NCBI GenBank assembly: GCA_043808095.1
Contig: JAZDFF010000042.1
Span: forward strand, 38,667-102,666
From: Candidatus Omnitrophota bacterium
GTDB lineage: Bacteria; Omnitrophota; Gorgyraeia; JAZDFF01
Direction of reading: 5' to 3'
DNA length: 64,000 nucleotides
Part shown: positions 1,490 through 62,247 of the stretch, piece by piece
Numbering within the stretch: position 1 is the first letter of the stretch
Layout: every line of letters begins with the position of its first letter
Notes under the pieces: generated by a model
What the model was told of the DNA's origin: nothing
Seen by the model: only the letters and a program-made list of their open reading frames with translations
Databases searched by the model: none
Translations under genes and position numbers: made by a program

Positions 1490-2908
1490 TTAGGCCTTGA
1501 CCTGATTTTTACCGTGGGCCTTGGCCTCAGAAAGTAATTGTCTGGCCTTAACCATCAGATCTTGGACCGTTACCCCGTCTATAGGATTCTCGCTTACGCC
1601 GGAGCTGACTGTCAAGTGTTTGCGTACATCAGTATCTTCACCAAAAGCAAATTCAATCTTTTTTCTCACATCCTCAGCCATATCCTTGGCCTGACGCTTG
1701 TTCTTCTCGGGCAAAACAAAGGCAAATTCATTATCGCCAATTCTGCCCACCCGGTCTATCTCACTGGCTGATTCCTCAAATATGACTGCTATCTTTTTCA
1801 GGGCAGATTCGGAGGATAATTCTCCGAAAAGCGTATGGTATCTCCTGAAATCATCGGCATTGAATATCACAAATGCGCAAGGCCTCTGATAAACAATTGC
1901 CCTCTTGATCTCTTCGTCTAATCTCGCCAGGATGTAACGATCGTTGTATAAGCCTGTCAGGGGGTCTTTTATCTCAAGTTTTTCCACTTTGTGATGCAGG
2001 AATCCATCTTCAACGGCAATGGAAACTTGCTTAACAAAGATGTCAACCATCTCAATCTCTTCGGGCTTATAAACAAAATCCTCCAGGTCATTACCGATAC
2101 CCAAAATTCCGCAGACCTCTCCATGCCTTAATATGGGAGTAACGACGGTATTGACCATAGCAAAAGATTTGCGCCAGGCATCAACCTCCGCAGAAGGCTT
2201 CATTTGACTATCTACAATCATTCTTTCGTTCTTTATAGCCAATTTTCCCAAGACGCCTTCGCCAAAATTTATTTTAATGGACATCAATTCTTTCGAGGCA
2301 TCTCCGTATATTGAGCGCATGGTTAATACGTCACTACCCTCATCCCTTAAGAGTAAAAAACATAATTTGGATTGACCAACCTGGATAATTTTTTCCGCAG
2401 TCATTTTGAGAATCTCTATTAACTCTGTGCCCTGGGTAATCAGCGAACTGATCTGAAGTAAACTCGACATGACGACAACGCGCTTATGAATCTCCGTATT
2501 TATTTCTTTGGTGCGCTCGGAATAGGACTTTAATTCATCCATATTACCCCGGATGCGCTGGGTAAGTTGATCCAAGGAGCGGCCCAAATCACCAATCTCA
2601 TCATCTCTAACCAGCCTAATCTTGTGGTTAATATCACCTTTAGCAATCATCTGGGCGTCTGCGCTTATCCTTACGATGTGGTCCACGATTTGCTTGAGGA
2701 TAAAGAATCCTATTAAACCAATGATGATAGTTATAGCGCTTACCCAGAAGATATTTTTCTTAAGGCCAAAGCTCAGCCACTCTACAGTAGGGAATATTAA
2801 ATTTAGTAAAATGAGAATGGGAATTATAGATAAAAGCGAAATAGAGACTAAAAGCTTTACACGTAGTCCTCGCGAGGCAAAAGAGGAACCCCTGGCTTTC
2901 TTTAACAT
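1490..2908 (-). CDS. membrane-anchored HAMP-GAF-GGDEF protein with degenerate active-site motif (RIGDNEF instead of R[YF]GG[DE]EF)
   Basis: It has two N-terminal TM helices, a HAMP-like segment (IAKGDINHKIRLVRDDEIGDLGRSLDQL), a GAF-like middle region and a C-terminal GGDEF fold (DPLTGLYNDRY...RIGDNEFAFVLP). The catalytic GG[DE]EF is replaced by GDNEF, and I could not find an RxxD I-site. Confidence 0.8.
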   Translation of the reverse strand: MLKKARGSSFASRGLRVKLLVSISLLSIIPILILLNLIFPTVEWLSFGLKKNIFWVSAITIIIGLIGFFILKQIVDHIVRISADAQMIAKGDINHKIRLVRDDEIGDLGRSLDQLTQRIRGNMDELKSYSERTKEINTEIHKRVVVMSSLLQISSLITQGTELIEILKMTAEKIIQVGQSKLCFLLLRDEGSDVLTMRSIYGDASKELMSIKINFGEGVLGKLAIKNERMIVDSQMKPSAEVDAWRKSFAMVNTVVTPILRHGEVCGILGIGNDLEDFVYKPEEIEMVDIFVKQVSIAVEDGFLHHKVEKLEIKDPLTGLYNDRYILARLDEEIKRAIVYQRPCAFVIFNADDFRRYHTLFGELSSESALKKIAVIFEESASEIDRVGRIGDNEFAFVLPEKNKRQAKDMAEDVRKKIEFAFGEDTDVRKHLTVSSGVSENPIDGVTVQDLMVKARQLLSEAKAHGKNQVKA

Positions 2909-2982
2909 AGCTACCTCTCCTTTTTAATGAGTACATCACTTACGGAGATTTAGCGACGTAAGTGATAGGTACGAATTAAATC

Positions 2983-3005
2983 CTTGACATCAAAGATGTC
3001 AAGGA
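2983..3005. repeat. family J palindrome CCTTGACATC-nnn-GATGTCAAGG
   Basis: Perfect 10-bp stem, 3-nt loop. Second copy at 45228..45252. Confidence 0.85.
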
Positions 3006-3044
3006 TAACTTGTCGTATTTATAACTTATTATGATTAATATAAT

Positions 3045-4832
3045 CTATAATTCGTTTATTGTCAATGCTTTTTGCAGATCGCGTTGTAATTTATGCCTGT
3101 CTTGGCCAAGATCAATATGCTCCCAGGGCAAGATTTCATCAAAAGACCTCCTGCGAAGAGCATAAAAGAAAGGGTCTATTCCTTGCTTATTGAAAGCCTC
3201 CATCCACAACGGGAAATTGAAGTATTCCCTCCAGCTATCAAATTTAGCCCCTTCCTGGAAGGCATTTAATATTACCTTGGCAATCCTACGGTCCCCCCGA
3301 CAAAGAACCGCTTCTAGAAAACCCATTTGAAAATCATGGAATTTTAAATTCACTAGATGCGGCCTACTAGACCTTAGTCGGGATATAAGATATTTTTTTT
3401 TATTCTCGAGGCTGGTTAAACTATCCATCTCTTGCCACTGAAAAGGCGTATGGCTCTTTGGGATAAAACAAGATATGCTTACGTTTATTACGGCAAGATG
3501 GCCGTCAATTTCTTTTCTTAATCTGGATAGGGCTACGGCAAGGTCAATAATCCCGTCTAGATCTTTTTCATTTTCCGTAGGTAGCCCGAGCATAAAATAG
3601 AGTTTCAGGTGTCGGTATCCACAGACGAATGCCTGATGGCTTACCTTGACCAATTCATCTAGATCTACATTTTTATTAATGACCTTTCTTAAACGCTCGG
3701 TTCCTGCCTCAGGCGCAAAAGTCAGGCCGCTTTTTCTTACTTTTGCTAAAAGTGCGGTTATATCACTCAATGAGCTCCTTGGTTTCAAAGAAGGCAGTGA
3801 TATCCCCACATATTTATCCTGGAAAAACTCCATCAATTCCTTAATTATCTCTTTTAATTTGGGATGGTCGCTTGAAGAAAGCGAAAGTAAAGACATCTCT
3901 TCATATCCGGTACTATTGTAACAGTCTTTGGCAAGCCTTAAGACAGAGTTAACAGACCTAGGCCGAGCTGGCCGATAAAAACAAAAAGCCTGACAAAATC
4001 TACAGCCACCAGGACATCCCCGCATGATCTCAAGCGTGATACGGTCATGAACTATCTGGATAAAAGGAACCAGCCACCGGGTCGGAAAAAATGCCTTGTC
4101 TAGATCATGGACTATCCGACGGATTATCTTAGTGGGAACGCTTCTTTGTCTTGGTGAAAATTTTTTAATCCTGCCATCCTCATTATATTCTACCTCATAT
4201 AAAGACGGAACGTACACGCCCTTTATCTTGGCTGACTCAAGTAAAAGCTTATCTTTTCGAAGGACGAGAGATGAAAGACGTTGGACGGTAAACTCCTTAT
4301 ATTTCTCGACCACCTCTAAGATCAATTCCTCTGCCTCGCCAATACAAAAGAGGTCAATAAAATCCGCCAGCGGCTCAGGATTAAGACAACAACAACCTCC
4401 GGCAATAATCAAAGGATGCCTGCTATCCCTATCTTTAGAAAGAAGCGGTATGCCGGATAAATCCAGGATATTTAATAGATTTGTATAATTAAGTTCATAT
4501 TGTAGGGAAAAACCGATTATATCAAATTCAGATAACGGCGTGTGCGTCTCGAGGGAAAAAAGCGGGATTTTATCTTTTCGTAAGATCTCTTCTAAATCCG
4601 TGTCCGGGGAAAATACCCTTTCGCAGGCAATATCGGATTGCGCATTTAAAAGCCCGTAGAGGATGCGCAGCCCCAGATGGCTCATGCCTACCTCATACAA
4701 ATCCGGGTAGCATAGGGCTATTTTGACTTTAGCATTATGGTGGTCTTTTCTGCTTACATTGTATTCATTACCGAGGTATCTGGCGGGTCTTTTTACTTTA
4801 GAGATAATCTCTTCGAAGTTAGTTAAGTTCAT
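3045..4832 (-). CDS. B12-binding-domain radical SAM protein (TIGR03960-like)
   Basis: The radical SAM CxxxCxxC motif RGCPGGCRFCQA is present, and the N-terminal region resembles a B12-binding Rossmann-like domain. Length is 595 aa. Confidence 0.75.
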   Translation of the reverse strand: MNLTNFEEIISKVKRPARYLGNEYNVSRKDHHNAKVKIALCYPDLYEVGMSHLGLRILYGLLNAQSDIACERVFSPDTDLEEILRKDKIPLFSLETHTPLSEFDIIGFSLQYELNYTNLLNILDLSGIPLLSKDRDSRHPLIIAGGCCCLNPEPLADFIDLFCIGEAEELILEVVEKYKEFTVQRLSSLVLRKDKLLLESAKIKGVYVPSLYEVEYNEDGRIKKFSPRQRSVPTKIIRRIVHDLDKAFFPTRWLVPFIQIVHDRITLEIMRGCPGGCRFCQAFCFYRPARPRSVNSVLRLAKDCYNSTGYEEMSLLSLSSSDHPKLKEIIKELMEFFQDKYVGISLPSLKPRSSLSDITALLAKVRKSGLTFAPEAGTERLRKVINKNVDLDELVKVSHQAFVCGYRHLKLYFMLGLPTENEKDLDGIIDLAVALSRLRKEIDGHLAVINVSISCFIPKSHTPFQWQEMDSLTSLENKKKYLISRLRSSRPHLVNLKFHDFQMGFLEAVLCRGDRRIAKVILNAFQEGAKFDSWREYFNFPLWMEAFNKQGIDPFFYALRRRSFDEILPWEHIDLGQDRHKLQRDLQKALTINEL

Positions 4833-5014
4833 GAATTATTTTACAACAAAAATGACTAAATTTATGTTAAATGAGGTTAAATAAAGTTAATTGAGGTTGT
4901 ATAAGGTTGCTTTTAAAAAAGCAACATCAGGAAACTTCATACAACATCAGATAACCTCATATAACCTTAAGGTAACAGAGTAAAATTCGCCTTGCTTATG
5001 TCTTGTGGCATTGC

Positions 5015-6133
5015 TCAGAAGACTATCTTCCTTCTGCCGATATTTAAGATTATCCCCAGATATAAAAAAGTAATAAATATGGATGAGCCGCCATAGCTCA
5101 TTAAAGGCAAGGCCAAACCTACAACCGGCATCATCCCCATGGTCATAGCGATATTGACCACTATCTGAAAAGTCAAAAGGCTGATAATGCCCGCGAGGAT
5201 TAATTGAGCGAAAGCATCATTTGTAGACTTATAAACTTCTACTACACGGTAAATAATAAAGAAATATAACAAGATAATAAGGCTGGCACCTAAAAATCCG
5301 AACTCCTCCCCTATTACCGAAAAAATAAAATCAGTATGACGTTCAGGTAAAAAATTAAGTTGATTCTGAGTCCCAGCCAGCCACCCTTTTCCCAGAAAAC
5401 CTCCCGAACCTATGGCAATCTTAGACTGGATAATAGTATAACCTGCACCAAGGGGGTCAAGATTAGGATTTAAAAAAACGAGCAACCTGGCTTTTTGATA
5501 CCCCTTTAATAGATGTAATAAAATCGGTGCTCCCCCTATTCCTATCACAAACATTGAAAAAATATATCTTAAATTTATGCCAGCAATTAAGAGCATCGCA
5601 AAGAATACTGGTATTAAACTTAAGGCGGCTCCGAGATGCGGTTCCTTAAATATCAAAAACATTGGTAAAATCAAAATCATCGATGGAAAAATCAGGTCTC
5701 TGAAAATTGGGACGCTAAATAAACTGTTTGAGTAGAAATGCATATCGAGCCTCTTTTTAGAAAAATGCTTTGCCAGGACTAAGATTACGGACAGCCTTGC
5801 CAGTTCAGAAGGCTGAAAATTTAATCCTAAAATATCCAGCCAGCGCTGTGCGCCTTGCCGGGGTCGAGCTACCACCAAGACCAAGATGAGAAGAATGCAA
5901 CTCAATATATAAAACCACCAGGCTAAGTCATTGAATCTGCGATAATTAAAATTCATCATTAATACGAGAAAAATTATGCCGATACTTAACCAAATGACTT
6001 GTCTGGTGAGAAAATCATTCTGAAACGAATGACCCACCTCGTTGGTGCTGCTGTAAATAGCCAATAGGCTAATGACCGAGATAAGTAAAACCGAAATTAA
6101 TATTCCGAAATCTAGATTGCCTCTTGCGCGCAT
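5015..6133 (-). CDS. rodA: peptidoglycan glycosyltransferase RodA (FtsW/RodA/SpoVE family)
   Basis: Polytopic membrane protein with SEDS signatures (GSGGFLGKGW, PERHTDFIFSVIGEEFGF). It lies downstream of mrdA in the mre cluster. Confidence 0.9.
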   Translation of the reverse strand: MRARGNLDFGILISVLLISVISLLAIYSSTNEVGHSFQNDFLTRQVIWLSIGIIFLVLMMNFNYRRFNDLAWWFYILSCILLILVLVVARPRQGAQRWLDILGLNFQPSELARLSVILVLAKHFSKKRLDMHFYSNSLFSVPIFRDLIFPSMILILPMFLIFKEPHLGAALSLIPVFFAMLLIAGINLRYIFSMFVIGIGGAPILLHLLKGYQKARLLVFLNPNLDPLGAGYTIIQSKIAIGSGGFLGKGWLAGTQNQLNFLPERHTDFIFSVIGEEFGFLGASLIILLYFFIIYRVVEVYKSTNDAFAQLILAGIISLLTFQIVVNIAMTMGMMPVVGLALPLMSYGGSSIFITFLYLGIILNIGRRKIVF

Positions 6134-6207
6134 AATTTTACTTAGAACCCTTTGTTTACAGTTTAAACTCTAAGCACTAAACTCTTCCCGCACAACTTGT
6201 AAAATAT

Positions 6208-6235
6208 GGCGGGATCCCGCAAAGCGGGAAAATCC
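6208..6235. repeat. REP-like palindrome family A (GCGGGATCCCGCAAAGCGGGAAAAT)
   Basis: Also at 21654..21678 (inverted), 22509..22538 and 38087..38115 (variant). A degenerate copy is at 36665..36715. Confidence 0.85.
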
Positions 6236-6423
6236 TAAACAATTTGTACTATTCAAAAGTCGAGTTAACAGTTTGAAGCTCGGTTTTTCGGTATGGATGC
6301 TCGTATCGATGCTCGTCTTGGAAACTCGTCTTATGTTTTATCTAGCTTCGAGCATCTAGCTTCGATATCCTTAGATTGTACTCAAGATACCGTCCTGAGC
6401 CTGTCGAAGGACGATACCAGCAT

Positions 6424-6514
6424 CCCTGCCTCACCGGCCCTTAGGAATTTTACATTGTAAAATTCCAAGGACTAAGTCCCGGAAATTCTCCGAATTTCTC
6501 GGGGCAGGCAGGGA
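6424..6514. repeat. ~90-nt palindromic repeat element (family C), copy 1, inverted relative to copies 2 and 3
   Basis: Near-identical to 30260..30355 and 49429..49517. Core CCGAGAAATTCGGAGAATTTCCGGGACTTAGTCCTTGGAATTTTACAATGTAAAATTCCTAAGGGCC, bracketed by CCTGCCTG.../...CAGGCAGG arms. Confidence 0.9.
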
Positions 6515-6671
6515 CAACCTAAGACGAATATCGACACCTTGGCTGTTGTGATATAGATTGTAAACACATCTCTTGAATTATACACGTAGTCGAACCATTA
6601 GGATTTCGGCACTTCGACTTTGCTCAGTGCCGATGGTGAGCGAAGTCGAACCATCGGATTTAGGATTTTAA

Positions 6672-8393
6672 CTAATTCGCTATAAACCCGCCTTTAATCA
6701 TCTCTTCAATTAACTGTCGGGATAAGGTGACTGCCGCTTGGCTGCCTCCGCCGTGCTCTAATAAAACTACAAAGACATACCGAGGATTCTCAAAAGGGAA
6801 AAAACCCGAAAACCAGGCATGAGGTTTTCCGGAACCTACCTGGGCAGTTGCGGTTTTTCCGGCGATCTTTAGATTATCAAACTTCAGGCAATTTGCTGTC
6901 CCCCGGGAATCCTCGACCACCCTTAATAAGCCGCTTTTTACCGTCGCCAATATACTCTTATCGAGGCCAAGGTTTATTGGTAGTGGCCGGACTAAGGCCT
7001 TGTTATCTACAGTCCTTATTATATGAGGCGTGATTAAATACCCGCCGTTAGCCACAACTGCTATCATCCTCACCATCTGGAGGGGACTAACTAAGACCTC
7101 ACCCTGACCAATGGAAAGATTGGCAGTATCACCATCATACCAATGCTCACCTCGGCTTGATAGCCTCCATCTTCGGGAAGGTATAAATCCGCTGGATTCA
7201 TTTGGTAGCTCAATTCCCGTAGGCCGACCAAATCCTAGTTTTGTGGCCCAATTATAAATAGCGTCCGGGCCGGCCAAAATACCCAACCGGTAAAAAAAGG
7301 CATTGCAGGAGTGGCACAAGGCATCTTCTATATTCTCATCGCCATGCACCGACCAACAGGAAAATTTCCTCTGACCAACAATCAAACCGCCTGTACATAA
7401 AAAATTCGTATTTTTTGAAATCTTCTTTGTGCTTAATCCTGCGAGGGATGTAACTATTTTAAATAAAGAACCTGCACTGTAGCGGCCGCTTATGGCCCGG
7501 TTTAATAAAGGCGCATCAGAATTATTCAAAATCAGTCGGCGCCTGGCTAACGAATCCCGATTTTTCTGGCTAAAGATGTTGGGGTCAAAACCCGGAGAAC
7601 TAACCAGGCTCAATATCTCTGCGCTTGTCGGGTCCATAACAATAATTGCACCGGTTTTACCCTCAAGGAGATTGTAGCAGATACGCTCTAGGTCAAGATC
7701 AATAGTCAACTGCACATCTTTTCCTCTTTGAGGCAGTTTCGTACCCAAGACCCTGACTTGCCTTCCTAAATTGTCTACCTCAATCTGAGTACCTCCGCCT
7801 TCTGCGCGCAGATACGCATCTAATTTTTCCTCTATGCCATCGCAGCCCACCGTATCCTTAACTGAATAACCATAATTTTTTAATCTCGTAAGTTTAAAGG
7901 GGTCGATTTTACCAAGATATCCCAAGATATGGCTGGCTATCTTAAAATTAGGATAGGCACGCTGCGGATCTTGCTGGATGATAACGCCGTCCAACTCAAG
8001 ACTATTATTCTCTATGGCCACCGCCTCATCCCGGGAGATGTCTTGTTTTATCACTACTGGAGCAAAGGCAAGGCCGTACCCTTTTTGATATGCCTTGCTT
8101 AAATCAGACGGATCTTCAGCTAATATCTGGGCCAACCTTAAAAAAATATGATTTTTTTTGCTCAAACCCTGGGGGATCAAACTAAGATCAAAAGACATGC
8201 GGCTGGTTGCCAAAATCCTGCCTTTTCGGTCAAAGATATTGCCGCGCATTGCGCTCTGGGGAATAACGCGGATGGAGTTCTTGCGGCTAAGTTCTAAATA
8301 ATAGTGACTACGGATTACTTGGGTGTAAGATAGGCCCAGGAGCAGACTTAAAAAACAAATCAGGATGATTATCTCTAAAATTCTAAGACGCAT
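6672..8393 (-). CDS. mrdA: penicillin-binding protein 2 (elongasome transpeptidase)
   Basis: N-terminal TM helix, SxxK (SAGSLFK), SxN (SCN) and KTG (KTGTA) motifs. Sits between mreD and rodA. Confidence 0.9.
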   Translation of the reverse strand: MRLRILEIIILICFLSLLLGLSYTQVIRSHYYLELSRKNSIRVIPQSAMRGNIFDRKGRILATSRMSFDLSLIPQGLSKKNHIFLRLAQILAEDPSDLSKAYQKGYGLAFAPVVIKQDISRDEAVAIENNSLELDGVIIQQDPQRAYPNFKIASHILGYLGKIDPFKLTRLKNYGYSVKDTVGCDGIEEKLDAYLRAEGGGTQIEVDNLGRQVRVLGTKLPQRGKDVQLTIDLDLERICYNLLEGKTGAIIVMDPTSAEILSLVSSPGFDPNIFSQKNRDSLARRRLILNNSDAPLLNRAISGRYSAGSLFKIVTSLAGLSTKKISKNTNFLCTGGLIVGQRKFSCWSVHGDENIEDALCHSCNAFFYRLGILAGPDAIYNWATKLGFGRPTGIELPNESSGFIPSRRWRLSSRGEHWYDGDTANLSIGQGEVLVSPLQMVRMIAVVANGGYLITPHIIRTVDNKALVRPLPINLGLDKSILATVKSGLLRVVEDSRGTANCLKFDNLKIAGKTATAQVGSGKPHAWFSGFFPFENPRYVFVVLLEHGGGSQAAVTLSRQLIEEMIKGGFIAN

Positions 8394-8395
8394 GA

Positions 8396-8902
8396 TTATT
8401 TGAAAGAGATAAAAAGCGGCTGCCTGGCTACTGGCTTAAGCACCTTCTTCAAGACGACGAATATTAAAGGTAGGATAACAACAGTATAAATAGCCGAAGG
8501 CAATATGGTATAAACCAATGCCCTTAAAAAGATTAAATCTGTGTAGAATATCTTGAGAATGAAATAATGGGCGATTTCATAGATTAAAACCGATAATGAT
8601 CCAATAAGAATTTTGGAAGTCGTGGTTTCTTTATAGAGGTATTTATTAAGATAACCCAGGACTAAACCGAGCAGCCCGAGACTCAAGGTATTTATTCCGA
8701 ATAAATCGACACTTAAGAGATCCTCTAAAACCCCCGCCAGGCATCCGTAGAGACCCGCCTCCTGAGGGGGACAGTTAAGCCCAAGATAAATTATAAGTAT
8801 TATCGAAAGATTCGGCTTTATATTATTAAAAAACACACCCAAACCTAAGGCCTCAAGAAAGACGAAGACCACCAACAGGATAAATACTTTTAATCTATTC
8901 AT
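8396..8902 (-). CDS. mreD: rod shape-determining protein MreD
   Basis: Small polytopic membrane protein immediately downstream of mreC, overlapping its end by 8 nt. Confidence 0.75.
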   Translation of the reverse strand: MNRLKVFILLVVFVFLEALGLGVFFNNIKPNLSIILIIYLGLNCPPQEAGLYGCLAGVLEDLLSVDLFGINTLSLGLLGLVLGYLNKYLYKETTTSKILIGSLSVLIYEIAHYFILKIFYTDLIFLRALVYTILPSAIYTVVILPLIFVVLKKVLKPVARQPLFISFK

Positions 8903-9677
8903 TAAGAACGACTATGACCTCTTCGAGTTTGGAAAAATCGACTGCAGGTTTAATGAGGGCGATTTTATTTAGGCCGCTTGCATCAAGCTCTACAGACTTA
9001 ACCTCTCCGATCAGTATCCCCCTGGGGAATGAACCATTTAACCCGGAACTGATAACCAAATCTCCTGATACTACATCGCTATCTTTATCCAGATAATACA
9101 TCTGGCAAAAACCTGAGAGCCTGCCTGAGATTATGCCTTGCTCGCGGCTACGCTGGATAAGGGCAGCGATCTTCAAATTCGGGTCGTTGATTAAAATAAC
9201 CTTACTGCTTGAGTCTCCGGTTTCAAAAATCTTCCCTACCGCGCCACCGGGCGATATGACTGCACAGTCTTTGCGGATATTATCGTTATTGCCTCTATCA
9301 ATAATCAGACTGAAAAACCAGTTGATAGGGTCTCTGCCAATTACCCTTGCAACCGTACTGCGAAAAGATTGAGCCCTGCGAAAAGAAAGAATTTTACTTA
9401 GGCGTTCGTCCTCTTTCAGGATTTCCAGATTGATAATCTTTTTTTGTCTTGTCCAGCCTAATTGCCTTTTTAAGGCGAGGTTTTCTTTTAGGATTGCTCG
9501 ATAGGAAAAAATGGACTTTATCTCGTTTATAAAAAAATTGATAGGCCTTAATGGCAGGCTTAAAAAATCCAGAGATTTTGCTCTCACTATTTGGAATTGC
9601 TTTTGCAGGAAGGTAAAGACTAAGGCAAGAACTACTACGACAAGAAATACCGCAATTAATTTTTTATATTTAGCCAC
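8895..9677 (-). CDS. mreC: rod shape-determining protein MreC
   Basis: N-terminal TM helix, a coiled-coil segment and a C-terminal beta domain (GDLVISSGLNGSFPRGILIGEV). Located between mreB and mreD. Confidence 0.85.
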   Translation of the reverse strand: MAKYKKLIAVFLVVVVLALVFTFLQKQFQIVRAKSLDFLSLPLRPINFFINEIKSIFSYRAILKENLALKRQLGWTRQKKIINLEILKEDERLSKILSFRRAQSFRSTVARVIGRDPINWFFSLIIDRGNNDNIRKDCAVISPGGAVGKIFETGDSSSKVILINDPNLKIAALIQRSREQGIISGRLSGFCQMYYLDKDSDVVSGDLVISSGLNGSFPRGILIGEVKSVELDASGLNKIALIKPAVDFSKLEEVIVVLNE

Positions 9678-9695
9678 TCAATAATATAAAACAAA

Positions 9696-10781
9696 TTATA
9701 ATTCAGACCTAAGAGGAACAACTACTCGTTTTAAGTATTTTATCTCATCTAATACTTTGCCAGTACCCAAGGCAACAGCAGTAACCGGATCGTCAGACAA
9801 GTGTACAGTCAAACCCGTCTCTTCAGAAACGAGTTTGTCGATATTGCGAAGCAATGAAGTACCGCCGGCAAAGACAATGCCTTTATCAATTAAGTCTGCT
9901 GCCAATTCTGGGGGGATTCTTTCCAAGGTAATCTTGATCGTCTCTAAGATTGCCCGAATAGGCTCTTTAAGCGCATCCCTCACTTCTTCTGAGGTGATAG
10001 TCACTTTCTTGGGTAAACCGGCAACCAGGTCTCTTCCTTTAACCTCAAGACTCATCTCTTCATCTAAAGGATAGGCCGAACCAATCTTTATCTTGATATC
10101 TTCGGCAGTACGTTCGCCAATCATGAGATTATAATTCTTCTTCATATACTCAGTGATGGCTAAATCCATTTCATCGCCGCCAATACGAATGGATTTAGAG
10201 AATACTATCCCGGCTAAAGAGATGACGGCAATCTCAGTTGTGCCTCCGCCAATATCAATAATCATATTCCCTGATGGCTCTTCGATGGGTAGGCCTACGC
10301 CAATGGCCGCAGCAATCGGCTCTTCAATTAAATAGACTTTTCGGGCTCCGGCACGCTCTGCCGAATCTATAACCGCCCGTTTTTCTACCTCGGTAATTCC
10401 TGAAGGGATAGCAATTACTAGCCTAGGAGGAACCATTACCCGGCGTTTATGCAGATTCCTGACCTTTTTGATAAAATAACGCAGCATCGCCTCAGTGACT
10501 TCGAAATCCGCAATCACGCCGTCTTTCATCGGCCTGATAGCAACGATATTTCCGGGAGTACGTCCCAACATACGCTTTGCCTCTTCACCAACTGCCAGGA
10601 CATTGGAAGTCCCTTTTTCTATGGCTACTACCGAAGGCTCGCACAAGACAATGCCATCGCCTTTTACATAAACCAAGGTAGTAGCAGTGCCCAAATCAAT
10701 GCCCATATCGTTAGAGAACGCCTCGCTAAAAAACTCAAGGGCTTTTTTGCCCACATTAAGTATTTTTTGAAATTTAACCAT
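9696..10781 (-). CDS. mreB: rod shape-determining actin homologue MreB
   Basis: Actin/Hsp70 fold signatures: [28 protein letters not shown] and [17 protein letters not shown]. Confidence 0.95.
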
Positions 10782-41227: not shown

Positions 41228-41277
41228 GCCCCTGCTGATTCGCTTTGATGAGCAAAGCGAATCAAAGCGGCAGGGGC
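41228..41277. repeat. family H 50-nt nested perfect hairpin
   Basis: GCCCCTGC-TGATTCGCTTTG-ATGAGC-AAAGCGAATCA-AAGCG-GCAGGGGC. Outer 8-bp stem around an inner 11-bp stem. Copy 2 at 60064..60110 is inverted. Confidence 0.9.
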
Positions 41278-41447: not shown

Positions 41448-42680
41448 TCACTTTATCTTTGTCCCTTTAGCCACTACTACAATTCCGGAATCAGTGATAA
41501 AAAATCGTTTTTTATCCTCATCCTTATCAAAACCAATTACCATCTTATCCGGGATGACCACGTCCTTGTCGATAATCGCATTCTTTATCCTGGAGGACTC
41601 TCCGACCCGTACGCCCTCCATAAGGATAGAGTCATAAACCTCGCTGCCGCAACCTAAGGCCACATTATAAGACAGGATGGAACGCTCAAGCACCTTGCCG
41701 CTGAATATACTGCCTCCGGCAATCAGGGAATCTAAAATCAAGCCAACATTATTCACATTATCTTTCGGGTAGAATAGGGCTTGGGCCGGAGGAAACTGTT
41801 CCTGATAAGTCCTTATCGGCCATTCCGGGTCATGGAGATTAAATATAGGATCAGGCTTGATTAAATCCATATTTGCCTCGTAATAGGCATCAATAGTCCC
41901 GATATCGCGCCAGTATACGCCTGAGCCGGCCTTGGGGCTTACAAAATTATAAGCCAGGAGCCTGCGTTTATTCTTAATCATCTGAGGTATTACATCCCTG
42001 CCAAAGTCATGGCTGCTGCCTGATTTTTTTACGTCCTCATTCAGCTCTTCTTCCAAGACCTTTCGATTAAAAACATATATCCCCATAGAGGCATAGATAT
42101 TTTTCGGATCTTGGGGTATAGTATGGGGATGAACGGGCTTTTCTTTAAAACCAAGTACGCGACTTTCCTTGTCTACCTGCACCACGCCCAGAAATCCTGC
42201 TTTATCCTTAGGCATGGTAACTACGCCGATGGTCACATCCGCTCCTGATTCCTGATGGAAGTTCACCATCCGAAGGTAATCCATCTTATAGATGTGGTCT
42301 CCGGCTAAAATCAAAATGATATCGGGATTCTCCTGTTCGATGGTATAAAAATTTTGATATATGGCATCTGCTGTGCCCCTATACCAATCGCCTCCTACTC
42401 TCTGCTGGGCAGGTATGACATCGATATATTCGCCCAATTGGGCGTCAAAGATATTCCAGCCAAGTCTTAGGTGTCTAATAAGTGAGATAGATTTATATTG
42501 GATAAGGATATGCGTACGCCTGATCCCCGAATTAATACAGTTAGAAAGGGTAAAGTCAATGATGCGGTATATCCCGCCAAAAGGCACTGCCGGCTTGGCC
42601 CGGTCCTTAGTCAGGGGCATAAGCCTCTCCCCTTTCCCGCCGGCCATAATAAAGGTTATGAGTCTGCGCATCGTCCTCAT
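41448..42680 (-). CDS. glgC: glucose-1-phosphate adenylyltransferase
   Basis: IMAGGKGERLMPLTKDRAKPAVPFGG nucleotidyltransferase motif and the C-terminal left-handed beta-helix region. Confidence 0.9.
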   Translation of the reverse strand: MRTMRRLITFIMAGGKGERLMPLTKDRAKPAVPFGGIYRIIDFTLSNCINSGIRRTHILIQYKSISLIRHLRLGWNIFDAQLGEYIDVIPAQQRVGGDWYRGTADAIYQNFYTIEQENPDIILILAGDHIYKMDYLRMVNFHQESGADVTIGVVTMPKDKAGFLGVVQVDKESRVLGFKEKPVHPHTIPQDPKNIYASMGIYVFNRKVLEEELNEDVKKSGSSHDFGRDVIPQMIKNKRRLLAYNFVSPKAGSGVYWRDIGTIDAYYEANMDLIKPDPIFNLHDPEWPIRTYQEQFPPAQALFYPKDNVNNVGLILDSLIAGGSIFSGKVLERSILSYNVALGCGSEVYDSILMEGVRVGESSRIKNAIIDKDVVIPDKMVIGFDKDEDKKRFFITDSGIVVVAKGTKIK

Positions 42681-57894: not shown

Positions 57895-58908
<1,014 letters not shown>

Positions 58909-59042
58909 TTAAACCTCCTCAATGACCCCGACGTTACGTCGGGGGGAATTCCTGCCTGCCGGCAGGGATCCCCGCCCATTTTTACCTTAAACCTAAGCCA
59001 TCCTTGTTAAAGGGGCGGGGTACATTAATTTAAAGTTAACTA

Positions 59043-60044
59043 TTATTTAGCTTCTCTTAAGTACTTAGCAGCCATTTCTGGCGGCGTTGACACGATATAA
59101 AAACCTGTCCCCCATTCAAAACCTGCGGTCCTGGCAAGGCGCGGCATAATCTCAAGATGCCAGTGATATCCGCCTTCTTTATCCGGATCATCTAAAATTG
59201 GTGAAGTATGGATGATGAAATTGTAAGATGGGTCGTTTAGAGTTACCCTGATTCTTCTTAGGGTCTCTTTTAGAACCTTGGCCATATCGGATATCTCTTC
59301 ATTAGTAATATGAAAGAAATATGGGTTGTGTTTTTTGGGGACAATCCAGGTCTCAAACGCAAATCTTGAGACGAACGGGCAGAAAGCCAAAAAATGTTTT
59401 GATTCCAAAACTAAGCGCCCTTTATCCTGCATCTCCTGGGACATGATATCGCAGAAAATGCAGCGCTCTCTGAATTCAAAATAATCTAAGGAACCCTTGA
59501 TTTCCTCAGCAACATTCTTGGGTATCATAGGAAGCGCAATGAGTTGCGAGTGCGGATGGGTAAGAGATGCCCCGGCAGATAATCCGTAATTTTTAAAGAC
59601 CAAGGTATATTTAAACCGTTTATCACGCAACAAATCAATAGCCCGACGACAGTACATATGTATGATATCGTCTACTTCTTGGTCAAGAAGATCAGGTATG
59701 TTCTTGTGATGATAAGGGGTTTCAATAATTACCTCGTGAGCACCAATACCGTTAGACATATCAAAGATTCCTACGCCGCGCCTGGCCAAATCGCCCTCAA
59801 CCTGTAAGGCCGGGAATTTATTCGGTACGACTCTCACCGTCCAACCAGGGGTATTCGGGCTGGTCCTTGAATCCCGCACTGCCTCTATTTCAGGAGGAGT
59901 CTGAGCTTCGTTTCCGTAACAAAAAGGACACTTATCATCCTTGACAGGATGCATTTCCGTTTCGAAATCTTGCGGCTTTTTGGGCTCATCAGTTTCTACA
60001 ATTACCCAGCGGGCGACTATAGGATCTTTTCTTAATTCTGCCAA
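59043..60044 (-). CDS. galT: galactose-1-phosphate uridylyltransferase-family (HIT branch) enzyme, canonical HPH active site
   Basis: CPFC zinc motif and THPHSQLIALP active-site motif. Confidence 0.8.
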   Translation of the reverse strand: MAELRKDPIVARWVIVETDEPKKPQDFETEMHPVKDDKCPFCYGNEAQTPPEIEAVRDSRTSPNTPGWTVRVVPNKFPALQVEGDLARRGVGIFDMSNGIGAHEVIIETPYHHKNIPDLLDQEVDDIIHMYCRRAIDLLRDKRFKYTLVFKNYGLSAGASLTHPHSQLIALPMIPKNVAEEIKGSLDYFEFRERCIFCDIMSQEMQDKGRLVLESKHFLAFCPFVSRFAFETWIVPKKHNPYFFHITNEEISDMAKVLKETLRRIRVTLNDPSYNFIIHTSPILDDPDKEGGYHWHLEIMPRLARTAGFEWGTGFYIVSTPPEMAAKYLREAK

Positions 60045-60063
60045 ATTAAGGCCTCCTTAATGA

Positions 60064-60110
60064 GCCCCTGCCGCTTTGATTCGCTTTGCTCATCAAAGCG
60101 AATCAGCAGG
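60064..60110. repeat. family H nested hairpin, inverted copy, between the two galT paralogs
   Basis: CCCCTGCCGCTTTGATTCGCTTTGCTCATCAAAGCGAATCAGCAGGGG. Confidence 0.9.
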
Positions 60111-60167
60111 GGGGATAAATCAGACATACAATTTACGTTCACTTCGTTCCGTAAATTGTGTCTTCAT

Positions 60168-61190
60168 TTAGACTTCCGTTTCCCTCATGAATTTTGCCGC
60201 GCTTTCAGGCGGCGTAGGACAGATATAAAAACCCGTACCCCACTCAAAACCCGCAACCCGAGTAAGCCTTGGGGTTATCTCTAAATGCCAGTGATAATCC
60301 TGGTCAATAGTCTTCCAATAACCTGCCTTGGGTCTTCTTAATGGAGCGGTATGTAATATAAAATTATAGGGCGGGTCATTAACACACTTCTTTAATTTAA
60401 GTAGAACTGTTTTTAATACCTGCGACAGGTCAGCTATCATCTGCGGTTTAATAGCCTGAAAATCGCAGGCATGTTCTTTGGGCAATATCCAGACCTCAAA
60501 AGGATAACGGCAGGCAAAGGGTACAACTGCTACAAAACCATCGATATCCAAGACAAGCCTTTCTTTACTTTCTAATTCCTGGCGAATTAAATCGCAGAAG
60601 ACACAGCGTTCGTGGTAATTAAAATAACGTTTAGACCCCTCAAGTTCTTCTTTTACCCGGCGGGGAGTAACAGGAGTGGCAATCAATTGAGAGCGCGCAT
60701 GTTTAATCCTTCCGGCGCCTGCGGCCCAGCCATAGTTTTTAAAAAGCAATATATATTTAAAACGCTTATCTTTCTCTAAATCAAAGACCCTGTCTTTAAA
60801 ACAATTAATAACCTTATTAATCTGCTCGGCCGACAAATCCGCAATATTACTGATATGATTAGGGGTCTCGATAATCACTTCATGCGCGCCTATGCCATTC
60901 ATCACATCAAAAAGGCCTTCTCCGCGCCTATCCAGGCCGCCTTCTATGCGAAGCAGCGGCTTGATGCTTGGTACAACTCTGACCTCCCAACCAGGTCCGT
61001 TTGCCCTGGTACGGGCAGGCCTAACCGCCATAATCTCAGGAGGGGTCTCGGATTCATGGCCTTCACAAAAAGGACACGTTCCTTCCTGAGGACCGGCCTC
61101 CATCTGGCCAAACTGATCAGGCCGTTTTGCCCTCTCAGTAGCAATAATAACCCAGCGACCGATTATAGGATCTTTTCTTAATTCCGGCAT
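60168..61190 (-). CDS. GalT-family paralog with substituted active site (KHARSQ instead of HPHxQ)
   Basis: Collinear with the upstream galT over its whole length. It keeps CPFC, but the nucleophile position of the H-P-H triad is Arg. Confidence 0.75.
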   Translation of the reverse strand: MPELRKDPIIGRWVIIATERAKRPDQFGQMEAGPQEGTCPFCEGHESETPPEIMAVRPARTRANGPGWEVRVVPSIKPLLRIEGGLDRRGEGLFDVMNGIGAHEVIIETPNHISNIADLSAEQINKVINCFKDRVFDLEKDKRFKYILLFKNYGWAAGAGRIKHARSQLIATPVTPRRVKEELEGSKRYFNYHERCVFCDLIRQELESKERLVLDIDGFVAVVPFACRYPFEVWILPKEHACDFQAIKPQMIADLSQVLKTVLLKLKKCVNDPPYNFILHTAPLRRPKAGYWKTIDQDYHWHLEITPRLTRVAGFEWGTGFYICPTPPESAAKFMRETEV

Positions 61191-61311
61191 AGCCTTCGTT
61201 TAACTGGAGGAGTTTACAATAATCTGTTTACAGTAAAAGATTTTTTTTACACAATTTACTAAAAAGTAACTCTCAAATTATATCACAGATGAAATCCGAT
61301 GCAAGAAAAAT

Positions 61312-62247
61312 CTATCCCAATGTATCGCCGGGGCTAATCTTGTGACCGGCAATAAAACTCCCTGCATCCAGAACCTTGGATGATTCTAATTGAAGCACCT
61401 TTATGGTTAAAATACCTCCTCCTGTGATAACAGAAATACCTTCCTTATTTACCTCACTAATATATCCCGGTAATTTTTTAGGCACTTCGGTAGGATTTTG
61501 GACTTCGCTCTTATAGATTTTAAGAAGCTCATCTTTATAATAGGTAAAGCTCCCCGGCCAAGGAAGCAACCCTCTTATGCGGTTATGAATTTCTAAAGAG
61601 GATTTTTGCCAATCAATCAGGCCGTCTTGTTTTTTTAGTTTGGGGGCGTAACTTGCCTCCTCTTCATTTTGTTCGGTCAGAGAAAAATCTCTATTTTCGA
61701 TTTTGTGTAATACCTTAGCAAAACTGGAGGCAGCCAACTTTGATAACTTGTCCTTAAGGCTTAGATAATCGTCGGAGGCCAAGATGCCAATTTTATCTTT
61801 TAAGATGATCTCGCCTTTATCCATAAACTCATTCATTTTTATAATGGTGATACCTGTTTCTTTATCGCCGTTAATGATTGCCCAGTTTATACAGGAAGCC
61901 CCCCGGTATTTAGGCAGGAGCGAGGCATGGATATTGATACTAAAGATTTTGGGAATCGCAAGAACCTCTCTTTTTAAAATCTGGCCAAAATGAACCACGA
62001 TAAATAGATCCGGGTTTAAAGACTCTAGATATTTTAGTGAATCAGGACTATTAATATCTTGAGGCTGAAAAACTGGGATTTCTTTTTTCAGAGCAGCCTC
62101 TTTAATCAAAGATGGTACTAATGGCAGATGCCTTCCTTTTCTGGTGTCGCCCCCGGTAACAACGGCTAAGACCTTATACCTTGATTCCATTAAAGTCTGG
62201 AGGCAGGGTAAAGCAAACTTATCAGTTCCGAAGAATACGATATCCAT
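61312..62247 (-). CDS. fmt: methionyl-tRNA formyltransferase
   Basis: N-terminal formyltransferase domain (SLLPKYRGASCINWAIINGDKETGITI) and C-terminal Fmt domain. Confidence 0.9.
   Translation of the reverse strand: MDIVFFGTDKFALPCLQTLMESRYKVLAVVTGGDTRKGRHLPLVPSLIKEAALKKEIPVFQPQDINSPDSLKYLESLNPDLFIVVHFGQILKREVLAIPKIFSINIHASLLPKYRGASCINWAIINGDKETGITIIKMNEFMDKGEIILKDKIGILASDDYLSLKDKLSKLAASSFAKVLHKIENRDFSLTEQNEEEASYAPKLKKQDGLIDWQKSSLEIHNRIRGLLPWPGSFTYYKDELLKIYKSEVQNPTEVPKKLPGYISEVNKEGISVITGGGILTIKVLQLESSKVLDAGSFIAGHKISPGDTLG

Follow-up and report, generated by a model that had tools for sequence, protein, structure and literature searches.

The window analysed here, a 64,000-nucleotide (nt) stretch of contig JAZDFF010000042.1 from a Candidatus Omnitrophota bacterium (GenBank assembly GCA_043808095.1), carries two adjacent reverse-strand genes for galactose-1-phosphate uridylyltransferase (GalT) superfamily proteins, with gap as their downstream neighbor (Table 1). 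The two proteins are collinear and 53% identical over 340 columns (E = 2e-128), and both keep a C-P-F-C motif (Cys39/Cys42). The downstream protein reads T162-H163-P164-H165-S166-Q167, the H-x-H-x-Q motif whose second histidine is the nucleophile, whereas the upstream protein reads K163-H164-A165-R166-S167-Q168 and lacks that histidine; after this difference we call them HxH and HxR. The TTG start of the HxH gene lies 7 nt 3' of a Shine-Dalgarno sequence (AAGGAGG, 60052..60058), and the N-terminus it gives, MAELRKDP, aligns with MPELRKDP of the paralogue. Public copies of the two proteins (P0001, P0121) are 100% identical to them and labelled Candidatus Omnitrophota; the names given to these copies and to related proteins are 'galactose-1-phosphate uridylyltransferase', 'UDPglucose--hexose-1-phosphate uridylyltransferase' or 'DUF4931 domain-containing protein'. 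An earlier reading of this DNA, the original prediction, had described tandem, collinear paralogues that share CPFC and differ by the loss of the nucleophilic histidine upstream, a description that the open reading frames, the identity and the alignments below bear out.

Table 1. Coordinates of the paralogous pair, its diagnostic codons and associated features in the window
Feature	Position	Strand	Details
HxR (nucleophile-less) paralogue, proposed non-catalytic complementing subunit	60168..61190	-	340 amino acids, ATG start; open reading frame
HxH paralogue, proposed catalytic subunit	59043..60044	-	333 amino acids, TTG start; open reading frame
Arg166 codon CGC of HxR, at the nucleophilic-His position (E. 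coli His166, At5g18200 His186)	60693..60695	-	alignments
H163-P164-H165 codons of HxH (Zn-ligand His, Pro, nucleophilic His)	59550..59558	-	sequence; His165 codon 59550..59552
E19-R20-A21-K22-R23-P24 codons of HxR, equivalent to E. coli GalT R28-A-K-R31-P	61119..61136	-	trans Arg pair by homology
Ser75 codon of HxR, in place of the own-site nucleotide-binding Asn (E. coli Asn77)	60966..60968	-	clade counts
Spacer between the paralogues, 123 nt	60045..60167	-	hairpin 1 60116..60170, overlapping the TAA stop; hairpin 2 60065..60112
gap (glyceraldehyde-3-phosphate dehydrogenase), conserved downstream neighbor of the pair	57895..58908	-	open reading frame
GlgC, glucose-1-phosphate adenylyltransferase	41448..42680	-	TIGR02091, 452.8 bits against a cut-off of 424.9

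Both proteins match PF01087 and PF02744 above the gathering score, and also PF16285/PF16268 (the related DUF4921/DUF4931). They score 123.0 and 115.4 bits with TIGR00209, whose cut-off of 102.1 is thus passed even by the copy without a nucleophile, and they stay far below the cut-off of 448 for the Leloir GalT equivalog NF008724 (136 and 128 bits). The best PDB match for each, over the full length, is At5g18200 (1Z84; E = 1.3e-72), compared with E = 7e-22 (HxR) and 5e-25 (HxH) for E. coli GalT and about 1e-17 for human GALT. Chains of At5g18200 are likewise the best structural matches to an AlphaFold2 model of HxR (Foldseek template modelling (TM) score 0.82-0.93), and comparison of the model with 1Z84, 6K5Z, 1HXQ and 5IN3 gives TM scores of 0.75-0.93; the second CxxC of each protein, Cys196/Cys199 in HxR and Cys195/Cys198 in HxH, aligns with Cys216/Cys219 of At5g18200. 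By sequence the pair belongs to the class-I GalT/HIT superfamily, nearest to the ADP-glucose phosphorylase branch, and is not Leloir GalT. The Leloir framing of the original prediction accordingly fell away, since both proteins are nearer to At5g18200 (E = 1e-72) than to the E. coli enzyme. Its observation that galK and galE are not nearby held, as no open reading frame of the window matches E. coli GalK, GalM or GalE at E < 1e-3; this absence is expected rather than odd, because the family is not Leloir GalT and its relatives lie in, or are fused to, glycogen genes.

At the nucleophile position of HxR, Arg166 stands opposite His186 of At5g18200 in phmmer alignments and opposite His166 of E. 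coli GalT in a MAFFT alignment (PDB entry 2H39 has Gly at His186, its chain reading S-H-S-G-S-Q as against S-H-S-H-S-Q in 1Z84). HxR has a one-residue insertion just upstream of its K-H-A-R-S-Q motif, and we looked for a displacement of the histidine by one or two residues: neither with the N-terminal nor with the C-terminal flank as the anchor did any register place a His at the nucleophile position. Among the 120 closest protein clusters of HxR (at least 70% identity), the position holds Arg or Lys in 119 (115 Arg, 4 Lys, 1 Thr), and in the 120 partner clusters it holds His throughout. In a genome collection with 56 loci holding a relative, where residues were tallied in 38 HxR and 37 partner loci, HxR has Arg or Lys there in 38/38. 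Judged from its sequence, HxR cannot form a covalent nucleotidyl-His intermediate at its own site.

HxR and HxH both have the zinc site (Cys39, Cys42, His112 and His164, the last being His163 in HxH; E. coli Cys52, Cys55, His115, His164), which is near-invariant in each clade, and the AlphaFold2 model of HxR is confident, with a predicted local distance difference test (pLDDT) score of 95 and a predicted TM (pTM) score of 0.92. Restricted to comparisons with unsaturated dS (47 pairs), the pairwise ratio of nonsynonymous to synonymous substitution rates (dN/dS) comes to 0.056 in HxR and 0.060 in its partner. Of the ancestral residues at 164 columns that the outgroups conserve, 86% are retained in the HxR clade and 74% in the partner clade, so that HxR is, by this count, the more conservative of the two paralogues. 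As judged from these figures the loss of the nucleophile is fixed and selected, not a product of decay.

The residues that accompany this loss are distributed reciprocally between the paralogues. In class-I GalTs and At5g18200 the active sites lie between two subunits. The nucleophile chain of class-I GalT also carries Asn77, Asn153, Ser161 and Gln168 (E. coli numbering, as in the counts below), and the other chain gives the Arg28/Arg31 pair from its N-terminal part and a C-terminal segment that binds the sugar; in human GALT, Arg48, the equivalent of Arg28, comes from the chain opposite to Gln188 (PMC5081055), and molecular dynamics finds the intersubunit contacts R48A-F99B and R51B-D98A, with glucose 1-phosphate bound mainly by Arg48/Arg51 (PMC8513031). 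On the nucleophile side, HxR has Ser for Asn77 in 120/120 clusters, a pattern repeated in the genome loci, Gly for Ser161 in 118/120, and Ala, Ser or Lys for Phe79, whereas the partner keeps Asn77 and Ser161 in all 120 and Phe79 in 118, and retains His164 and Gln168 as well. On the trans side the situation is reversed: HxR has Arg28 in 120/120 and Arg31 in 117 (Lys in the other 3), and the partner has His (91), Ser (10), Glu (4) or Asn (4) at the former, with no Arg among those tallied, and Lys (67), Arg (12), Leu (10) or Thr (7) at the latter. The genome loci, 38 of HxR and 37 of the partner, show this distribution too. In the window itself, HxH keeps the equivalents of all own-site residues (N77, N153, S161, H164, H166 and Q168) and reads E-P-K-K-P (Glu20/Lys23) where HxR, E. 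coli GalT and At5g18200 share an identical RAKRP, and HxR keeps, apart from the zinc ligands, the equivalents of Asn153 and Gln168. Projecting these positions onto the contacts listed for human GALT sets the ancestral N-terminal strand of HxR (A-T-E-R-A-K-R-P) against the partner's ancestral N-K-F-P-A, and the partner's derived strand (D-T-D-H-P-K-K-P) against S-I-(A/S)-P-F, the derived segment 75-79 of HxR. Because ancestral thus faces ancestral and derived faces derived, a mixed dimer would restore one fully ancestral and one fully derived site, where each homodimer would contain two incomplete ones.

The genes are inherited together. Every HxR-type gene with enough surrounding contig has an HxH-type gene directly after it, and the stop codon of the first lies -8 to +1 nt from the start codon of the second in 28 of 32 loci, an overlap that suggests stoichiometric co-translation of the pair. 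The order priA-fmt-HxR-HxH-gap recurs in nearly all Omnitrophota loci, with a gap homologue directly 3' of the pair in essentially every one whose contig is long enough. In a neighbor-joining tree the HxR proteins are monophyletic, forming the clade that the original prediction had proposed to look for, and their partners form a second clade with a mirrored topology; the outgroups, from metagenome-assembled genomes labelled Auribacterota, Chlamydiae, TA06 and Zixibacteria, have one HxH copy only.

Indirect support comes from natural proteins in which a pseudo-domain is fused to a catalytic domain. A search of 1.84 billion cluster representatives, the 150 best of which were tallied, returned as its top match a fusion of 599 amino acids, and a second search added two more (596 and 599 amino acids). 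The three (P0241, P0391 and P0392; 596-599 amino acids, 52-56% identical) come from three assemblies, and the two whose context was looked up, one in an NCBI and one in a Logan assembly, both lie in the order tyrS-fusion-gap-pgk-tpiA. Neither the CxxC zinc site nor the HxH loop remains in their pseudo-domain, which retains the invariant VAVERAKRPNDF strand, the C-terminal half and, likewise invariant, the segment AGFEWGTGxYINPT. The catalytic domain, which begins at CPFC after a short linker, is without the Arg-bearing N-terminal strand; it keeps N-K-F-P-A-L and G-A-S-L-E-H-(P/S)-H-T-Q, and its own FEWGTG segment is degenerate. This architecture matches the prediction of a one-site model if the unused parts were free to go. 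Divergent pairs of pseudo and catalytic genes that are not fused occur after fmt in two further loci (L066, L067).

We consider it probable that HxR and HxH are the subunits of one class-I GalT-type nucleotidyltransferase, an obligate heterodimer with one working composite site, a proposal in which the physical heterodimer, the single live site and the substrate are the parts we infer. One ancient duplication in Omnitrophota would have been followed by complementary losses: the downstream HxH copy would have retained the own-site half while its trans Arg pair degenerated, and the upstream HxR copy would have retained the trans half and given up the other through the changes His to Arg, Asn to Ser and Ser to Gly. 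At the live site, His165 of HxH would act as the nucleophile, clamped by Arg20/Arg23 and the FEWGTGFY segment of HxR, and the second site would be catalytically dead; the chemistry would be ping-pong via nucleotidyl-His165, serving glycogen and central carbon metabolism. HxR would then be an indispensable non-catalytic subunit, because it keeps Arg20/Arg23 and FEWGTGFY and its partner is without the Arg pair. As would be expected of an enzyme/pseudoenzyme heteromer, HxR is under purifying selection, is co-inherited with its catalytic paralogue and is complementary to it in the pattern of lost residues, and natural fusions of the two kinds of domain exist. The original prediction had taken the upstream copy to be inactive as a uridylyltransferase or else neofunctionalised; the part that stands is the absence of a nucleotidyl-His at its own site, but an indispensable heterodimer subunit is better supported than either outcome.

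Several observations weigh against this proposal. Adjacency and co-inheritance would also fit two enzymes of one pathway, and the trans role of the Arg pair is carried over to the Omnitrophota proteins from human and E. coli GalT. The supposedly dead site has acquired new near-invariant residues (Ser75, Arg166 and a basic residue at 163), and the partner's own FEWGTGFY trans segment is invariant in unfused pairs, for which reasons the second site, remodelled rather than eroded, may not be functionless. A G-Y-W-K-T-I-D-Q-D loop (HxR 290-298) that is invariant in HxR and the outgroups is deleted in the partner and also in both domains of the fusions. Long branches kept a neighbor-joining tree of the C-terminal half from placing the fusion domains within the HxR and partner clades, and the AlphaFold2 model of fusion P0241 says little on whether its two domains pack like a GalT dimer: it reaches a pLDDT of 72.6 and a pTM of 0.71, only three sequences cover the pseudo-domain in the multiple sequence alignment, and a pLDDT of 50 is reached neither by the N-terminal strand nor by either FEWGTG segment. 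One pseudo-type gene (L065, 1704..2708) follows fmt with no adjacent partner: the roughly 850 nt beyond it (2709..3558) contain no called gene and no tblastn match to either paralogue, and its partner is either elsewhere in that genome or lost. Finally, two nucleophile-less homologues from other lineages, P0247 (L060, L061) and P0257 (L062, L063), are orphans with no paralogue nearby. The nucleophile is lost in about 17 of the 150 best representatives, where Tyr, Ile, Val, Leu, Cys, Ser or Arg takes its place, and not every such homologue need be a heterodimer subunit; the two orphans are possibly GalT-like proteins that were repurposed independently. They read H-V-Y and H-I-E at the H-x-H-x-Q positions and are also without the Arg pair or Asn77, and their genes are flanked by those for pantothenate kinase and a universal stress protein, or precede the one for acetate kinase.

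Such orphans, together with the unpartnered pseudo-type gene, would sit comfortably with HxR as a neofunctionalised, stand-alone homodimer that neighbors HxH through a shared pathway and has either gained a new activity, for instance as a non-covalent phosphorylase or hydrolase acting through Arg166, or become a sugar-phosphate sensor. The altered site is indeed not random, with Ser75, Arg166 and the basic residue 163 near-invariant and the zinc ligands, Asn153 and Gln168 kept. We nevertheless regard a stand-alone role as unlikely. An HxR homodimer would set an Arg clamp over a site without nucleophile, Asn77 or Ser161, an HxH homodimer would have no clamp, and mixing alone explains the reciprocal residue pattern; the fusions deleted the entire N-terminal half of the pseudo-domain, with its zinc site and HxH loop, yet hold its trans elements invariant, which could not be so if the pseudo-site had an essential activity, and the overlapping stop and start codons in most loci point to two chains made in stoichiometric amounts. 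The same fusion lineage, in which the pocket is dispensable, tells against a refinement of the heterodimer proposal that keeps the mixed dimer and turns its dead site allosteric, with the HxR pocket binding a phospho-metabolite and tuning the live site; the partner residues that face the pocket are variable as well. We judge this version very unlikely, even though it would account for the new invariant residues in the pocket, for the gain of basic residues 163 and 166 by HxR and the loss by the partner of two that would reach into it, and for the retention of the partner's sugar-binding trans segment and Glu in unfused pairs, and even though the operon link with gap, or with gap-pgk-tpiA in the fusion lineage, fits metabolic sensing. 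It is decidedly unlikely, in our estimate, that Omnitrophota turned a symmetric homodimer into an obligate asymmetric heterodimer whose second site became a phospho-metabolite sensor coupling ADP-glucose and glycogen turnover to gap, pgk and tpiA.

That the upstream gene is a decaying relic, or that its catalytic histidine has merely shifted so that His164 serves as the nucleophile, strikes us as extremely improbable. His164 does lie two residues before the nucleophile position, and the one-residue insertion upstream of the motif could suggest a slip of this kind, but His164 is among the invariant zinc ligands and still committed to zinc, and the equivalents of Asn77 and Ser161 are lost too. 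We reject the shifted histidine on alignment register and zinc-ligand conservation, and a pseudogene on dN/dS and conservation, with more ancestral residues kept than in the catalytic partner and a confident structural model.

With the heterodimer as the preferred reading, the reaction at its live site would most likely be ADP-glucose + phosphate <-> glucose 1-phosphate + ADP, a proposal drawn from homology and gene context in which our confidence is evenly balanced. At5g18200 reportedly works by a ping-pong mechanism via AMP-His186, moving the AMP of ADP-glucose to phosphate, which is said to be its best acceptor. We favor this reaction because At5g18200 is the closest relative. Three points temper the assignment: structural alignment with At5g18200 gives no more than 35-37% identity; Pyrobaculum PaGalT (6K5Z; E = 2e-42), which comes next among the solved homologues, is grouped with the class-I GalTs; and the conserved neighbor in Omnitrophota is gap, not a glycogen gene. 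The window encodes GlgC, and its genome therefore makes ADP-glucose, as far as gene content can tell. This glgC, 17 kb from the pair, is the only glycogen gene met in the window, where BLAST found no homologues of the GlgA, GH57 or glucan phosphorylase proteins of the outgroup clusters.

Those clusters belong to single-copy HxH relatives, whose genes (X) lie in the arrangements glgC-glgA-X-GH57-GH57 or GH57-X-alpha-glucan phosphorylase in metagenome-assembled genomes labelled Auribacterota, Chlamydiae and others (loci L035, L037, L038 and L039, at about 2000..10400; L043; and L051, L052 and L055). With these clusters, natural fusions tie the subfamily strongly to alpha-glucan metabolism: the 150 best representatives include one fusion to a GlgA-type glycogen synthase (P0271, 814 amino acids) and two GH57 fusions (P0289 and P0336; 875 and 858 amino acids). 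Another protein, P0276, holds two complete HxH GalT-like domains in a single chain of 871 amino acids. The portions of a 2024 review of prokaryotic alpha-glucan enzymes available to us contain no mention of an association between GalT-like genes and glycogen clusters (PMC11046441).

The spacer between the paralogues, for which the original prediction had noted one hairpin, holds two strong ones and folds with a minimum free energy of -49.8 kcal/mol (z = -5.7). Only four other loci have a spacer at this place; since the paralogues overlap or abut in the 28 others, the spacer of the window is a secondary insertion. Hairpin 1 is still discernible in the closest relative (L013). Hairpin 2 (CCCCTGCTGATTCGCTTTGATGAGCAAAGCGAATCAAAGCGGCAGGGGC; 60064..60112, reverse strand) has an exact 49-nt copy at 41229..41277 on the forward strand, about 170 nt downstream of glgC and in the opposite orientation relative to transcription, and the window has no third copy; the repeated hairpin may be a palindromic element that is small and mobile, or else a regulatory hairpin common to glgC and the GalT-like pair. 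The spacer between HxH and gap (58909..59042) contains several G+C-rich inverted repeats (CCCCGCCC...GGGCGGGG, CCTGCCGGCAGG, CCCCGACGTAACGTCGGGG). An Rfam scan of 58850..61350 gave one sub-threshold match there, to anti-hemB at 58918..59021 (25.8 bits against a threshold of 49.5), which we took to be probably due to chance. Terminator-like sites numbered 13, compared with 6.0 in shuffled sequences (standard deviation 2.6), and a promoter scan found promoter-like sites no more numerous than in shuffles (11 versus 9.5).

The pair resembles At5g18200 (1Z84, 1ZWJ, 2H39) in its two-half HIT fold, in the first zinc site (CxxC, His and the first His of HxH), in the second CxxC of the C-terminal half and in the HxHxQ loop of the HxH partner. 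At5g18200, however, is a homodimer with its sites between subunits, whereas in the window the gene is duplicated, one copy having Arg at the position of His186 and the other being without the equivalents of Arg41/Arg44. With the Leloir class-I GalTs (E. coli 1HXP/1HXQ/1GUP, human 5IN3) the pair shares superfamily and fold, and those enzymes have composite sites, in which the second His of HPH is the nucleophile and the neighboring subunit lends Arg28/Arg31 and its C-terminal segment. They are more remote relatives, with E about 1e-22 to 1e-25 and a structural alignment of 21-23% identity, their second metal site is built differently, and their known members are homodimers. The conserved gene order here is priA-fmt-pair-gap, with no galK, galE or galM homologue in the window. 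ADP-glucose pyrophosphorylase, in the form of GlgC/GlgD in Firmicutes and of the small and large subunits in plants, offers a precedent in which duplication has placed a catalytic and a non-catalytic paralogue in one heteromer. The Omnitrophota pair would likewise combine such paralogues in the same pathway, and NCBIfam has a model for GlgD, but fold and chemistry are unrelated, and in a GalT-type dimer the non-catalytic chain would supply active-site residues directly. Heterodimers of wild-type and mutant human GALT, such as wild type/Q188R, illustrate that each GalT site depends on both chains, and a clash with Arg48 from the opposite chain has been proposed as the cause of the partly dominant-negative effect of Q188R (PMC5081055). 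Those mixtures are allelic and arise in patients or in the laboratory, whereas the window pair consists of two dedicated genes fixed by evolution. The searchable literature, whose coverage is incomplete, yielded no account of a GalT-type enzyme that is naturally heterodimeric, nor of this subfamily.

These findings bear on how the family is annotated and understood. Both genes of the pair are named galactose-1-phosphate uridylyltransferase, although one cannot do that chemistry at its own site, as judged from the residues it has lost, and neither paralogue is likely to act in galactose metabolism. The findings also draw notice to a subfamily of GalT-like proteins whose genes lie within the glycogen clusters of bacteria. 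Should the copies that have lost the nucleophile prove to be sensors, its absence from roughly a tenth of the subfamily's cluster representatives would mark a wider, unrecognized class of GalT-like pseudoenzymes. The composite sites of GalT already explain dominant-negative effects in human galactosaemia, and if the heterodimer proposal is true, the phylum-wide Omnitrophota pair would be a clean case of a symmetric homodimer evolving into an obligate enzyme/pseudoenzyme heterodimer, with the unfused pairs as the intermediate state and the fusions, shed of their unused parts, as the end state.

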